39,761 nucleotides of DNA from positions 1 through 39,761 of the forward strand of contig CAZSZY010000005.1 of NCBI GenBank assembly GCA_964611285.1, in the 5' to 3' direction. This DNA comes from an uncultured Methanosarcinales archaeon (GTDB lineage: Archaea; Nanobdellota; Nanobdellia; Woesearchaeales; SKGA01). Within the stretch, counting starts at the first letter, position 1; the number at the start of each line of letters is the position of its first letter. The notes beneath the pieces were generated by a model that saw nothing but the letters and a program-made list of their open reading frames with translations, was not told where the DNA came from and did no database searches. A program made the translations under genes and the position numbers. Shown in pieces: positions 13,076 through 39,761 of this stretch.

Positions 13076-13702
13076 ATGGAACAACTCCTCACAATTAGAA
13101 AATTACTCAAAGGAAAAAAACCAACGTTTACTAGACATGACGCTCACAAAAAGAAAAGAGTAGGTATTGGCTGGCGAAGACCTAAGGGACGACAAAACAA
13201 AATGCGTTTACATCGAAAAGGTTACGCTAAAATTCGTTCAACAGGTTATGGATCGCCTGTTGCAGTCAAAGGATTATCCAAACAAGGTTTAACACAAAAC
13301 GTTGTTGCAAATTTAAAAGATTTTCAAACTCTTGACGCAAAAAAAGATGGAATTATTATTTCAGGAACTGTCGGCGCAAGAAAAAAAATAGTATTAATCG
13401 AATTTGCAGAAAAAAACAATTTCACAATTATTAATCTCGACGCAAAAGCTACGAAAAAGTCAATTGAGGACAAAGTAGAAGCAAAAAAAGCTCGAAGAAA
13501 AGTGCTCTTGAAACGAAAAGACACTAAAAAGAAAGCAAAAGAAAAAGCAGCAGCGAAAGATGATGCTGAAGCTAAAAAAGAAGAAGTAAAAACCAAAATG
13601 CAGGACACTGAAAAGCCAGTTTCAAAAGATGTGGAAACAGAAAAAGAAGCAAAGCTAGAAGAGAAAAAAGAACACGACAAAGTCCTCATAAGAAAAGAAT
13701 AG
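13076..13702 (+). CDS. rpl32e: 50S ribosomal protein eL32 with about 80-aa K/E/A-rich C-terminal extension
   Basis: PTFTRHDAHKKKRVGIGWRRPKGRQNKMRLHRKGY...GYGSP core, followed by a charged low-complexity tail. Confidence 0.94.
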   Translation: MEQLLTIRKLLKGKKPTFTRHDAHKKKRVGIGWRRPKGRQNKMRLHRKGYAKIRSTGYGSPVAVKGLSKQGLTQNVVANLKDFQTLDAKKDGIIISGTVGARKKIVLIEFAEKNNFTIINLDAKATKKSIEDKVEAKKARRKVLLKRKDTKKKAKEKAAAKDDAEAKKEEVKTKMQDTEKPVSKDVETEKEAKLEEKKEHDKVLIRKE

Positions 13703-37194: not shown

Positions 37195-37755
37195 TTAAAG
37201 AATAAATAATCCTTTATGCCATGTCATTCTTTTATGATCTTTCATTTCTTCTTGTCTATTATATGGTTGGTCGTAGATTATTTGTTCCCATGTTGGTTTC
37301 ATAAGTCCAGTTATGTTCGGTTTATCATCAATAAGATAATCTCCTCGAACAAGTGTTTTATCTTTTGTAATTATCATTCTTCGCACCCAAAACATTCCTA
37401 AATGTTGTTTAATCCATTGTTTTTTCCCGTATTCACAATGTTTGTTAAATACATTTGGACTAGTACATATATAGACTTCATTGTTCGCATGCATCAACCT
37501 TTCAATTCCTTCTGTTGCTCCAGGAAATGATTCTAAACTTTCAAAAAAATCTTTCTTGCGACTTATTGCTCTAATATCATCTCCATATTTGACATCATAA
37601 TGAGTTTCAATATCGTGTGTAATCATGGTTTCTCTTGGTACAAACGGTCGTTGAGGATATTTTTCTTGCCATCGTTTATTGTATTCGCCGACGTAGTCTG
37701 CTAAAACACCGTCCATGTCGACCAGATATGTTCCTTTTGGTAGTTCTTGTTTCAT
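37195..37755 (-). CDS. 5'(3')-deoxyribonucleotidase (HAD superfamily, NT5C family)
   Basis: YLVDMDGVLADY is the HAD motif I in its NT5C form. 186 aa, with later ICTSP and LIDDKP motifs. Confidence 0.78.
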   Translation of the reverse strand: MKQELPKGTYLVDMDGVLADYVGEYNKRWQEKYPQRPFVPRETMITHDIETHYDVKYGDDIRAISRKKDFFESLESFPGATEGIERLMHANNEVYICTSPNVFNKHCEYGKKQWIKQHLGMFWVRRMIITKDKTLVRGDYLIDDKPNITGLMKPTWEQIIYDQPYNRQEEMKDHKRMTWHKGLFIL

Positions 37756-37812: not shown

Positions 37813-38565
37813 ATGTTTAATGAGCTTAAAACCTTTGGTTTAACCGGTTATGAAATTAAAGTCTATGAAGCGTTGCTCAAGCAAGGTTCTTCATCTGCTA
37901 GAGAATTACATAGTCTTTCAAAAGTACCTATTACAGCCATTTATCCAAATATTAAATCTTTAGAAGAAAAGGGTTTAGTAAAGTCTTTTGCAGGTGACAT
38001 AAAAAAATATGAAGTTATTAATCCCAAAATAGCATTAAAACAACTAGCAGAAAAAAAGTCTGCAGAGTTACTTAACTTACATGAGAAAATTTCTCCGCGC
38101 TTAACCAACCTAAAGAATGAACGGATCGTGAAGCATCTCGATCCAGTAGAACTTTCGGCAGGCGCCAAAGCGTCTTTAGATTTATCCTATTCCTTAGTTG
38201 ATAAAGCTGAAAAGTCTTTTTACATTGTTGGTTGGGGTTTTAGAAAACTCAAGTCTCTTCATAGGGCAGTTAAGTTATTTCAAAAGTTAGGTCAAAAAAA
38301 TATTGATGTCCGAGTTATTTTTGGTGATGATAATGAACGAACCAGATTTTTAGCAAAGAAATGTGATGAATTTGGTGTTCAAGCCCGTTTTTTCCCTATG
38401 AATAATTGCTCGTTAGTCATGGCGGATAGTACTGATTGCAAATTAACATTAAAACGAAGAAATTTACCAGAACAAGTTAATATTCATATTGTAGATACGG
38501 ACTTAGTTTCTGCTTTCAACGATTATGCCTTACTTTTATGGGGAAAAGCCCATATTTTCGAGTAA
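37813..38565 (+). CDS. TrmB-family transcriptional regulator (second copy)
   Basis: LTGYEIKVYEALLKQGSSSARELHSLSKVPITAIYPNIKSLEEKGLV wHTH plus a C-terminal domain. Confidence 0.8.
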   Translation: MFNELKTFGLTGYEIKVYEALLKQGSSSARELHSLSKVPITAIYPNIKSLEEKGLVKSFAGDIKKYEVINPKIALKQLAEKKSAELLNLHEKISPRLTNLKNERIVKHLDPVELSAGAKASLDLSYSLVDKAEKSFYIVGWGFRKLKSLHRAVKLFQKLGQKNIDVRVIFGDDNERTRFLAKKCDEFGVQARFFPMNNCSLVMADSTDCKLTLKRRNLPEQVNIHIVDTDLVSAFNDYALLLWGKAHIFE

Positions 38566-38607: not shown

Positions 38608-39761
38608 ATGGAGGAGGTTTTGCCAACTGGCTACGAAGATAGTATTCCACATTATAAAGAATACAAAAGAAAACTAGCGCTTAGTCCTATTGCTCAAGAT
38701 TTGCTTCGTATGCGTTATCTAAAGCGCAACCAAGAAGGAAATATTGTAGAAGATCCTGTTGGGATGTTTCATCGAGTAGCGCAAAATATTGCTCTTGGAG
38801 ATAAAAAATATGGTGGAAATGTTAAAGGGGCCGAACAATCTTTTTTTGCACATTTAATTAATCAAGATTTTATTCCGGCTTCACCAATTTTAATGAATGC
38901 AGGAAATACTTTACAATTCTTATTTTCTGATCATGCACTTGATGTGCCTGACTCTGTTGAAGAAATTTTTGATGTGCTTAAGTTAGGCGCAACTATTCAA
39001 CAACATGGAGGTGGAGTTGGTTTTAGCTTTTCTAAAATTCGTCCACGAAAAGACTCAGTATCAGGCATGAAAAATGTGGCTTTTGGTCCGATGAGTGTTA
39101 TGAAAATATTTGATACGTCGTTTAGTGCAATTATTCAAGGCGGAAGAAGAAGCGGAGCAAACATGGCAATACTCCATATCACCCATCCAGATATCATGTC
39201 TTTTATTGAAGCTAAAAGTGACTTACAAGCGTTGCAAAATTTTAATTTATCTGTTGCGGTAACTGATGAATTTATGCAGGCCGTAAATGAAGGTAAAAAT
39301 TTTTCTTTAATTAATCCTCGAAATGGCGAAGTGGTAAGAACAATTCCTGCAAAATTATTATTTGATGCGATTGTCGAGCAATCCTGGCAAACAGGAGATC
39401 CTGGAGTTATTTTTATTGACGAGATGAACAGAAAATATCCTTTCAAAAACAAAGATGTACTTTGCACAGGTTCTTGCGGACAATATGAGTTGGAGTCTTT
39501 TGAAGGCGTTCCTTATGCGCACATTAATCTTCTGAAAATTCTTGTTGAAAAAAATGGCGTGTTTGCAATAGATGAACAAACGCTCCGTCACCTTATTAGA
39601 GATGTCGTTCATTTTTTAGATAACTGTGTCGACATGCACGCATATACAAATGCTATCATTGAAGAAAAAACTAAAGCATCAAGAAAAATAGGTTTAGGAG
39701 TTTTAGGTTTTGCAGACATGCTCTTTAAGATGGGTGTTTCCTACGGTTCTGATGATTCTGT
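38608..39761 (+). CDS. Class II (NrdJ-type) ribonucleotide reductase-like protein, 3'-truncated by the window end, with non-canonical active-site residues
   Basis: Hand-translated open frame running to the window end. RNR family motifs: LLRMRYLKRN, SPILMNAG, DSVEEIF, GGGVGFSFSKIRP, GGRRSGANMAILHITHPDI, FNLSVAV, WQTGDPGVIFID, FLDNCVD, SRKIGLGVLGFADML. Not in the ORF track because there is no stop codon. Confidence 0.85.
   Translation, partial: MEEVLPTGYEDSIPHYKEYKRKLALSPIAQDLLRMRYLKRNQEGNIVEDPVGMFHRVAQNIALGDKKYGGNVKGAEQSFFAHLINQDFIPASPILMNAGNTLQFLFSDHALDVPDSVEEIFDVLKLGATIQQHGGGVGFSFSKIRPRKDSVSGMKNVAFGPMSVMKIFDTSFSAIIQGGRRSGANMAILHITHPDIMSFIEAKSDLQALQNFNLSVAVTDEFMQAVNEGKNFSLINPRNGEVVRTIPAKLLFDAIVEQSWQTGDPGVIFIDEMNRKYPFKNKDVLCTGSCGQYELESFEGVPYAHINLLKILVEKNGVFAIDEQTLRHLIRDVVHFLDNCVDMHAYTNAIIEEKTKASRKIGLGVLGFADMLFKMGVSYGSDDS

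Follow-up and report, generated by a model that had tools for sequence, protein, structure and literature searches.

The window, by which we mean the whole 39,761-nucleotide stretch of DNA analysed here, ends inside a gene related to the adenosylcobalamin (AdoCbl)-dependent class II ribonucleotide reductases (RNRs), NrdJ. We call it NrdJ-prime, our own name for the paralogue family to which it belongs. The open reading frame occupies 38608..39759 (+), begins with ATG and runs off the 3' end of the window; for the sequence beyond that end we used L027, a 99%-identical contig, and not the window's own genome, and on that contig the complete protein (P0004) is ~597 aa long. The translation, motifs and coordinates given by the first-pass annotation proved exact: 38929-38931 is GAT and encodes D108, 39466-39483 encodes TGSCGQ, and 39502-39531 encodes EGVPYAHINL. 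Two further genes and a short spacer lie upstream (Table 1). The TTTTTATA stretch in this spacer could, on its sequence, be the gene's own archaeal promoter; no NrdR-box-like palindrome was found within these 42 bp.

Table 1. Features at and upstream of the NrdJ-prime gene in the window.
Feature	Position	Strand	Detail
NT5C-type 5'(3')-deoxyribonucleotidase gene	37195..37755	-	PF06941
TrmB-family regulator gene, directly upstream	37813..38565	+	PF01978
42-bp spacer before the start codon	38566..38607	+	A/T-rich TTTTTATA stretch
NrdJ-derived paralogue (NrdJ-prime), first 384 codons	38608..39761	+	Pfam PF00317 + PF02867
Apical phosphate-binding loop P-A-S-P	38875..38886	+	NDP-type P-N-S-P with N->A
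Asp108, replacing the bottom-face redox Cys (T. maritima C134, E. coli C225)	38929..38931	+	Strand motif F-S-D-H-A-L-D
Finger loop T-G-S-C-G-Q	39466..39483	+	Gly288 for Asn320, Cys290 kept, Gln292 for Glu324
Strand βF E-G-V-P-Y-A-H-I-N-L	39502..39531	+	Val301 for the second redox Cys (C333)

Membership of the class II RNR family, claimed on first inspection, was borne out by both domain content and fold. Pfam searches of the open reading frame returned PF02867 (E 3.7e-67) and PF00317 (E 2.6e-18). An AF2 model of the full-length, 99%-identical P0004 (pLDDT 87.9, pTM 0.90) has the RNR fold, an N-terminal all-alpha domain followed by a 10-stranded alpha/beta barrel, and Foldseek superposed it on 1XJJ, 1XJE and 3O0O at TM 0.87. 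The dimeric NrdJ of T. maritima (1XJE, 3O0O) has both domains in common with NrdJ-prime, at about 31% sequence identity. P0004 scores 537 bits against the TIGR02504 NrdJ_Z equivalog, above the cut-off of 399.95, which accounts for its public label of 'adenosylcobalamin-dependent ribonucleoside-diphosphate reductase'. Membership of NCBIfam NF005401 (PRK06948), a named 'ribonucleotide reductase-like protein' family whose proteins are, like NrdJ-prime, about 600 aa long, was considered and rejected (P0004 reaches 208 bits where the cut-off is 906).

Aligned by phmmer to T. maritima NrdJ (1xje; E 1.6e-57), NrdJ-prime carries D108 in place of C134, G288 in place of N320, Q292 in place of E324 and V301 in place of C333, and keeps C322 as C290. 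Farther along strand βF, N334, L335 and S337 are replaced by Pro, Tyr and His. The HMMER mapping and the AF2 superposition agree, so the residue alignment is not shifted. The original hand alignment, which had placed the Cys, Asn and Glu replacements and the retained thiyl Cys by eye, is therefore upheld.

These replacements are conserved. In the F-S-D-H-A-L-D motif, S107 and D108 are invariant in the clade and H109 becomes Tyr or Asn in distant subclades. Cys290, at the thiyl-radical position on the finger-loop tip, is present in every full-length member (49/49); Gln292 is invariant in the clade, and position 288 is Gly or, in some members, Ser. Among the new βF residues, Pro302 and His305 are invariant and Tyr303 occurs in 98% of members. 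The redox Cys pair that T. maritima carries on βA and βF (C134/C333) is absent, the clade having D...V/I at these sites and one member a Cys at the second. As a set, D108, G/S288, Q292, V301, P302, Y303 and H305 are as conserved as the residues they replaced.

The C terminus has changed as well. In NrdJ, the active site is re-reduced by cysteines at the C terminus, either a pair or those of a Cys-rich zinc-finger domain (PMC5704485). The portion of the gene beyond the window also lacks these redox cysteines: full-length members end in ...YRDGCRxDQ..K.QT[RK]LxAF(E/D), with no Cys pair, TSCPD or zinc ribbon, and a conserved K-x-Q-T-[RK]-L-x-A-F tail stands in place of the Cys-rich one. Since the redox Cys pair, the Asn and the Glu are all replaced, canonical reduction should fail, as had been predicted from the partial gene. 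Judged by its residues, canonical disulfide-coupled reduction by NrdJ-prime is excluded.

Much of the nucleotide-binding apparatus is retained. The apical loop reads P-N-S-P in NDP-type and P-A-G-R in NTP-type enzymes (PMC8365446); the P-A-S-P of NrdJ-prime keeps the S-P that defines the NDP type, with N->A fixed in the clade (P90, A91 and P93 invariant, S92 in at least 90% of members). The distal phosphate loop APTGSTS is kept, and its APTGS is common to T. maritima NrdJ. Effector-site residues D141 and R171, loop 1 and much of loop 2 (Q203, R207) are conserved, whereas loop-2 K202 and R208 of the T. maritima enzyme are not. The βJ strand KGxTxYRDG is retained, as is the beta-hairpin, which is thought to help cofactor binding (PMC9531940). 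At hairpin positions R514 and 528 (T. maritima numbering), canonical relatives are at least 97% conserved and NrdJ-prime is variable.

When positions conserved in at least 90% of both NrdJ-prime and canonical NrdJ were compared, 129 were shared and 16 were fixed differently. Nearly all of the 16 fall in the ribose/phosphate pocket (N90A, T93I, S132F, A133S, C134D, E324Q, S332G, C333V, N334P, L335Y and S337H), and divergence from the canonical enzymes is concentrated in the segments FSDHALD, CTG[SA]CGQY and EGVPYAH of the ribose pocket. Such a distribution is what a remodelled pocket would show, as opposed to one that has been abandoned.

A search for homologues with the same D/G/C/Q/V pattern recovered 55 database clusters, 48-84% identical and labelled Woesearchaeota or Nanoarchaeota, that carry the replacement residues. 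These clusters, with D-(G/S)-C-Q-(V/I/C) at the catalytic positions, formed one clade (SH-aLRT 100%) nested in the NDP-type NrdJ, and branches inside it were no longer than those of the real enzymes. By its phylogeny, NrdJ-prime is a monophyletic, DPANN-restricted family descended from a dimeric NDP-type class II RNR. A contig scan yielded 26 loci; the tabulated open reading frames other than that of L001 (L002 and 20 of L003-L026) have canonical catalytic residues.

Comparison with the 99%-identical strain gave a dN/dS of 0.069, and comparison with an 84%-identical orthologue gave a pN of 0.10 with pS saturated. Two independent marine-metagenome runs contain the stretch with no indels and with the catalytic codons unchanged; 20 of the 26 strain differences in these runs lie at third codon positions. 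No RNA run contained the NrdJ-prime gene. The combination of residues fixed throughout the clade and purifying selection indicates a selected protein, and neither a dead gene nor a normal reductase.

The immediate neighbours of the gene were less informative. The first-pass annotation had set it beside a TrmB regulator and an NT5C deoxyribonucleotidase, and both genes are indeed present, but orthologous loci have neither NT5C nor an intact TrmB (L001 carries YjbQ and a TrmB remnant, L028 GH3/ThiI). As they are not conserved there, these neighbours give no functional link.

A different neighbour recurs. In five lineages, namely the 99%-identical contig and four more distant ones, a second, canonical RNR lies directly downstream, an NTP-type NrdJ without an ATP-cone at a distance of 150-240 bp, with a PduO adenosyltransferase (ATR) nearby. 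This tandem was found at L001, L027, L028-30, L031-33 and L038. At L036, NrdJ-prime sits directly behind a different type of NrdJ, a long PNSP form, in place of the PAGR NTP-type neighbour of most lineages. Altogether, a canonical NrdJ is adjacent in five of the six contexts examined; the exception is L034 (the P0051 subclade), where the ±10 kb around the gene contain no RNR.

The ATR is conserved in the NrdJ-prime locus, and in one lineage it is fused to NrdJ-prime (P0047, on two independent contigs). Among the best 150 representatives, no fusion of NrdJ-prime to canonical NrdJ was found. Two proteins that matched over a double stretch, P0124 and P0125, were rejected as such fusions and are canonical NrdJs with duplications or inteins. 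Odd patterns among the long matches were mostly intein artefacts.

In the main clade, NrdJ-prime lies outside the NrdR-box pair that precedes canonical nrdJ. At L001, a tandem pair of NrdR-box-like palindromes stands upstream of the ATR gene and also upstream of nrdJ, a sequence arrangement suggestive of one regulon covering both the enzyme and the supply of its cofactor. Rfam detected no RNA element in the spacer between nrdJ-prime and nrdJ; the conservation there lies in a DNA palindrome.

The first-pass annotation named a pseudoenzyme, an RNR with another reductant and a new radical enzyme as candidates and chose none of them; each keeps some probability here. We tentatively favour the view, to which we give a little less than an even chance, that NrdJ-prime is a neofunctionalised AdoCbl/thiyl enzyme. 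Such a protein would still bind a nucleoside diphosphate and, judging from context, adenosylcobalamin, and the thiyl radical on Cys290 would still be formed. With a C134-C333 disulfide impossible, the nucleotide would undergo another kind of radical reaction in the rebuilt ribose pocket, one that involves no disulfide. This might be a dehydration or rearrangement that needs no thiol, with a product that enters the neighbouring dNTP pathway or is rescued by it, and the protein would serve a function tied to deoxynucleotide or B12 metabolism. A simple 2'-dehydratase would need another base, because Gln replaces the Glu that serves as base in the first, water-eliminating step of RNR chemistry.

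The unbroken conservation of Cys290 and the fixed polar pocket may, with similar caution, be taken as support for a radical enzyme, and independence from NrdJ is supported by the P0051 subclade with no RNR nearby, by the position of the gene outside the NrdR boxes and by the varying type of the neighbouring NrdJ. Purifying selection on the gene favours this reading too, and the ATR of the locus, with its fusion to NrdJ-prime, supplies a link to B12. The relaxed hairpin (R514/528) and loop-2 (K202/R208) positions speak against a radical enzyme. So does the tight and recurrent pairing with canonical NrdJ (5/6 contexts), which fits a non-catalytic partner.

That NrdJ-prime is such a partner, or a nucleotide sensor, for the neighbouring cone-less NrdJ is the strongest alternative, although we consider it rather unlikely. 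Nucleotides would be bound at the effector site, at the dead active site or at both, and the paralogue would act through a heterodimer across the alphaA/alphaB interface or by docking through its conserved C-terminal tail. It would thereby supply the regulation that relatives with an ATP-cone have in cis. The recurrent placement beside or behind a canonical NrdJ favours this reading, as does the finding that in 16 of 27 partner-clade clusters the longest contig is exactly the same size as that of a variant cluster. The partner NrdJs have no ATP-cone; their nearest relatives (56-59% identical) have one, and those at L039 and L041 share the same nrdJ-ATR-NFACT-RsmB synteny with no paralogue. A second paralogue family, which lacks one or both redox cysteines and bears an ATP-cone, likewise adjoins a cone-less NrdJ (L040, the P0394 context). 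The contrast between conserved D141, R171 and loop 1 and relaxed K202 and R208 would also suit a partner, and the tail, disordered in the model yet conserved, may resemble a docking motif.

However, a scaffold would need neither an invariant radical Cys nor new polar pocket residues that are invariant or nearly so. The partner NrdJ is 30% identical and changes type with lineage, which sits poorly with a dimer interface that has co-evolved, and the paralogue gene is not under the NrdR boxes preceding nrdJ. One subclade stands alone with no RNR nearby, and the sole fusion detected joins the paralogue to the adenosyltransferase and not to NrdJ. In a test for an asymmetric heterodimer, two positions were relaxed in loop 2 of the paralogue and three in loop 1 of the partner, numbers near a rough background estimate; relaxation in these loops was statistically indistinguishable from background.

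The conserved ATR, fused to the paralogue in P0047, and the palindrome pairs preceding ATR and nrdJ at L001 would also fit a cobalamin-handling protein, one that receives AdoCbl from ATR and stores it, protects it or delivers it to NrdJ in a corrinoid scavenger. We think this improbable. It leaves the invariant phosphate loops, the effector site and the rebuilt ribose pocket unexplained, and cone-bearing relatives manage with NrdJ and ATR alone. AdoCbl binds class II RNR reversibly, and no such AdoCbl chaperone is known for these enzymes.

Slightly less probable still is a genuine RNR whose reductant, something other than a protein thiol, would be delivered straight to the pocket, much as formate serves class III enzymes. 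In its favour, NrdJ-prime retains the thiyl Cys, the phosphate loops for the substrate and the effector site, N320->Gly and C333->Val/Pro might open space in the pocket, and in one subclade no further RNR is encoded within 20 kb. Against this, neither bottom-face cysteine survives, the Glu base and the Asn have been lost as well, and most lineages have a fully canonical NrdJ next door. Class III RNRs themselves keep one bottom-face cysteine (Table 1 of PMC4390871).

Of the five catalytic residues four are absent, and the window's end cuts the gene, but we give almost no credence to an assembly or alignment artefact or a decaying pseudogene, the last being ruled out by purifying selection (dN/dS about 0.07), since the frame is open for 597 codons in the 99%-identical strain and likewise in 49 full-length relatives, the residues that took their place vary little or not at all, independent runs carry the same codons and the structure-level alignment concurs.

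RNR-family proteins that have lost catalytic residues and are nevertheless conserved and functional include yeast Rnr4 (beta-prime) and the betaherpesvirus R1 homologues M45 and UL45. Rnr4 is a class I beta subunit, and M45/UL45 are viral alpha homologues that have lost practically all catalytic residues. Unlike these, NrdJ-prime is an archaeal class II alpha protein with a radical Cys and a newly fixed pocket. Glycyl-radical enzymes offer a precedent, since in them the finger-loop Cys persists and the pocket of the 10-stranded barrel has been remodelled for new chemistry. Pyruvate formate-lyase, B12-independent glycerol dehydratase and choline TMA-lyase resemble NrdJ-prime in this way (PMC4390871), but in them a glycyl radical and a radical-SAM activase take the place of AdoCbl, and their sequence relation to the clade is undetectable beyond the fold.

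In the literature we searched, we found no AdoCbl-dependent member of the barrel other than RNR. Work on NrdJ in DPANN, RNR pseudoenzymes and adenosylcobalamin yielded no published NrdJ-prime-like protein, and the RNR phylogeny and evolution papers searched made no mention of such proteins. It is possible, though we hold this a shade more loosely than the radical-enzyme reading itself, that NrdJ-prime is the first AdoCbl-dependent enzyme on the RNR barrel to do something other than disulfide-coupled reduction: a thiyl-radical enzyme whose substrate is a nucleoside diphosphate bound in an Asp/His/Tyr/Gln pocket, and part of a broader radiation of NrdJ descendants in DPANN from which the otherwise universal redox-Cys pair has been lost.

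The five catalytic residues have been treated as universal in class I and class II RNRs. NrdJ-prime passes the NCBIfam equivalog threshold and is consequently annotated as a functional reductase, so that reconstructions of DPANN metabolism in which it figures as an RNR, or as a second NDP-specific NrdJ, are probably in error. The clade would represent a novel type of B12 radical enzyme with the RNR fold or else the first regulatory class II RNR pseudoenzyme.

The translation of the open reading frame that runs off the 3' end of the window was identical to the protein quoted in the first-pass annotation, and contains the all-alpha (PF00317, E 2.6e-18) and barrel (PF02867, E 3.7e-67) Pfam domains of ribonucleotide reductases (RNRs). 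Alignment of this class II RNR paralogue, NrdJ-prime, with T. maritima NrdJ (1xje; phmmer E 1.6e-57) reproduced all five residue pairings proposed by hand, and the codon coordinates were right on recheck. The AlphaFold2 model of P0004, a 99%-identical full-length NrdJ-prime (pLDDT 87.9, pTM 0.90), superposed on T. maritima NrdJ structures with a TM score of 0.87, and a shift in the hand alignment was therefore excluded. The stretch had no indels and no key-codon changes in two independent marine-metagenome runs, where 20 of 26 strain differences fell at third codon positions.

Coordinates of NrdJ-prime, its key residues, related loci and candidate NrdR boxes
Feature	Position	Strand	Description
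NrdJ-prime ORF	38608..39759	+	ATG start; window ends inside ORF; 384-residue translation
Asp108	opposite T. maritima C134		phmmer alignment
Gly288	opposite T. maritima N320		phmmer alignment
Cys290	opposite T. maritima C322		phmmer alignment
Gln292	opposite T. maritima E324		phmmer alignment
Val301	opposite T. maritima C333		phmmer alignment
TrmB remnant	L001:7721-7993		90-aa ORF matching TrmB C-terminus only
Cone-bearing NrdJ	L039:8001-11135		Woesearchaeota/DPANN
Cone-bearing NrdJ	L041:8001-11147		Woesearchaeota/DPANN
P0390	L040:12364-14511		715 aa, ATP-cone; I-S-C-E-A at the five sites; then CobA-type adenosyltransferase
P0430	L042:9001-11016		C-C-S-C cluster at betaA strand; no C-terminal Cys tail
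Tandem palindromes	L027:2019-2066		before canonical nrdJ
Tandem palindromes	L001:9874-9939 and 13079-13126		before canonical nrdJ and before PduO ATR gene
Tandem palindromes	L028:11960-12007		before canonical nrdJ
Tandem palindromes	L038:11852-11899		before canonical nrdJ
Tandem palindromes	L036:6027-6074		before nrdR-nrdJ operon

The remainder of the gene and its downstream neighbour were read from relatives' contigs. The full-length gene, sought beyond the window, encodes 597 aa in P0004 (contig L027), which matches the window protein at 380 of 384 residues. A second RNR, for which the first-pass annotation had proposed a search, lies directly downstream: on L027 a gene beginning 148 bp 3' of P0004 matches the canonical NrdJ N-terminus over its first 80 residues, and on L001, beside an 84%-identical orthologue of 596 aa, this gene is complete, encoding a 791-aa NrdJ with NCFVIP, TNPCGEQ, GVCNL and a C-terminal zinc-ribbon cysteine tail. 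The same order recurs in three further lineages (L028-30, L038 and L031-33; paralogue identity 67%, 65% and 59%), with the paralogue followed by a 150-240 bp spacer, canonical NrdJ (773-791 aa) and, 1-4 genes beyond, a PduO-type cob(I)alamin adenosyltransferase (ATR). For 16/27 partner-clade clusters the longest contig exactly equals a paralogue cluster's in size, indicating that both genes lie on the same contigs. Schell et al. (PMC8365446) read substrate type from the phosphate loop (P-N-S-P, NDP type; P-A-G-R, NTP type); on that basis the partner is NTP type (P-A-G-R), and the P-A-S-P of NrdJ-prime appears to derive from NDP-type P-N-S-P. Because the loop types differ and the tandem proteins are only 30% identical, the pair is, judged from sequence, not a recent duplication.

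The TrmB gene of the window is intact (250 aa); at the corresponding place L001 has a remnant, with a YjbQ-family gene ahead of it. The TrmB/NT5C surroundings are therefore lineage-specific. The label 'uncultured Methanosarcinales archaeon' on the L001 MAG (CAYRYB010000006.1) seems to be a mistake of binning or classification: both its NrdJ-prime and its NrdJ group with proteins from Woesearchaeota/Nanoarchaeota, and its gene order is that of DPANN contigs.

Searching a 5.8-billion-protein collection with a full-length orthologue returned 55 NrdJ-prime clusters (48-84% identity, about 580-625 aa), named Woesearchaeota, Nanoarchaeota or Nanobdellota. The D/G/Q/V pattern first seen in the window extends to all of them, the five sites reading D-(G/S)-C-Q-(V/I; C in one). 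The next matches, at ≤46% identity, were NrdJs with the canonical C-N-C-E-C residues and either an ATP-cone or a TSCPD domain, and among the best 150 of 25,943 RNR-like proteins from a profile search of 1.84 billion representatives the D/G/C/Q/V pattern was confined to the clade's own representatives. Phylogeny placed the family as one clade (SH-aLRT 100; stem 0.43) nested among NDP-type NrdJs, with internal branches not longer than those of real enzymes. S107, D108, C290, G291, Q292, P302 and H305 are invariant across 49 full-length members and Y303 is conserved in 98%; H109 is conserved in the main clade and replaced by Tyr or Asn in distant subclades. A decaying gene was ruled out by this conservation of the replacement residues and by a dN/dS of 0.069 in comparison with the 99% strain. 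For the 84% orthologue, pN was 0.10 with pS saturated; dN/dS and pN were on par with those of the PCNA and RNase J genes nearby.

Canonical ribonucleotide reduction requires the C134/C333 pair, E324 and a C-terminal redox shuttle (Table 1 of PMC4390871; PMC5704485). All are missing from NrdJ-prime, whose C-terminus has no cysteine pair, and its sequence therefore indicates that it is not a conventional reductase, as the first-pass annotation had reasoned. In public records the family is listed as a functional adenosylcobalamin-dependent ribonucleoside-diphosphate reductase, since its score of 537 bits clears the TIGR02504 (NCBIfam) equivalog cut-off of 400; this looks like systematic over-annotation. 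A full-text literature search, including RNR phylogeny and evolution papers, found no account of any comparable class II RNR paralogue.

In a comparison of the 49 full-length NrdJ-prime proteins with 66 close canonical NrdJs, the same residue was ≥90% conserved in both groups at 129 positions, including S91 and P92 of the apical phosphate loop, the distal loop A-P-T-G-x-x-S, effector-site D141 and R171, loop-2 Q203, G204 and R207, the IEP hairpin start, and the motifs GGGxG, FNLS, WxxGDPG, FLDN, R(K/R)xGLGxxGFA, SKTxN and KGxTxYRDG. Only 16 positions were conserved with different residues; these concentrate round the ribose/phosphate pocket (N90A, T93I, S132F, A133S, C134D, E324Q, S332G, C333V, N334P, L335Y, S337H), and three lie within or just ahead of helix alphaB. 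Other positions conserved in canonical enzymes vary in NrdJ-prime (e.g., loop-2 K202 and R208, hairpin 514 and 528). The pocket has apparently been rebuilt and then frozen, within a scaffold still apparently suited to binding both a nucleoside diphosphate and an effector.

The main rival explanation, possible though rather unlikely, is that NrdJ-prime serves the cone-less NrdJ as a non-catalytic partner or nucleotide sensor. It draws on the repeated tandem pairing, the conserved effector site with relaxed loop 2, a docking-like tail, and a distribution complementary with ATP-cones. The tail (K-x-Q-T-[RK]-L-x-A-F; Q585, L588 and F591 in 49/49) is predicted to be disordered; residues 583-591 of P0004 (…RLSAFE…) may resemble the class I beta-subunit C-terminal alpha-binding peptides (…LSNFQL, E. 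coli), a lead for a putative docking function. Partner NrdJs have no ATP-cone, a domain present in the proteins most closely related to them (56-59% identity; CPR bacteria, DPANN archaea); from sequence comparison, NrdJs behind NrdJ-prime have evidently lost it. The cone-bearing loci L039 and L041 have nrdJ-ATR-NFACT-RsmB synteny in common and no upstream paralogue.

On L040 a different degenerate paralogue (P0390) lies 2 kb downstream of a cone-less canonical NrdJ. Its small family (P0390, P0391, P0393, P0394) has an ATP-cone, keeps the radical Cys and Glu, and varies at the redox positions (ISCEA, VSCEC, GSCES, CSCET), suggesting that these are under relaxed constraint. Both contexts viewed adjoin a cone-less RNR gene (catalytic residues checked for that of L040 only) and a CobA-type adenosyltransferase gene. 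Other NrdJ-like proteins have E324 and no C333: P0430/P0437 (C-G-C-E-T), P0268 (S-D-C-E-T) and P0270 (S-S-C-E-A), with an ATP-cone in P0430, P0437 and P0268. The P0430 gene (L042) is followed by a CobA-type adenosyltransferase, with no second RNR within 9 kb. P0430 may be an NrdJ whose resolving cysteine has been relocated, or an intermediate toward the D/G/C/Q/V clade.

In the P0047 lineage (two independent contigs), a PduO adenosyltransferase domain (PF01923, E 1.3e-29) is N-terminal to NrdJ-prime in a single 774-aa protein, encoded 10 bp behind a long P-N-S-P-type NrdJ in the row nrdR-nrdJ-ATR::paralogue. That NrdJ-prime is a cobalamin-handling protein is improbable, and a reductase with a non-thiol reductant seems slightly more so. 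In P0051, the most divergent subclade (FSDYVFV / CTGSCGQS), the 10 kb to each side of the gene contain no RNR gene.

The spacer before canonical nrdJ contains two palindromes 32 bp apart that fit the bacterial NrdR-box consensus, ACACTAnATATAGTGT, one box having zero mismatches in each of L001, L027, L028 and L038. No box with ≤3 mismatches was found in the whole 39.7-kb window, including the 42-bp spacer before the paralogue. In the main clade, then, NrdR control seems to cover nrdJ and its cofactor-supply gene and to leave out the paralogue.

We tentatively favour NrdJ-prime as an active AdoCbl/thiyl-radical enzyme with altered chemistry, because the radical Cys does not vary and the new polar residues of the pocket vary little or not at all, the phosphate loops are preserved, the sole fusion found is to an adenosyltransferase, the predicted boxes separate its regulation from that of nrdJ, and the neighbouring NrdJ varies in type or is absent. 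NrdJ-prime, whose sequence, fold, conservation, selection, synteny and fusion are shown, would then bind AdoCbl, form a radical and act on a putative substrate. The palindromes imply an NrdR regulon in DPANN archaea, cofactor supply included, and if the radical-enzyme reading is true, NrdJ-prime could become categorically new.
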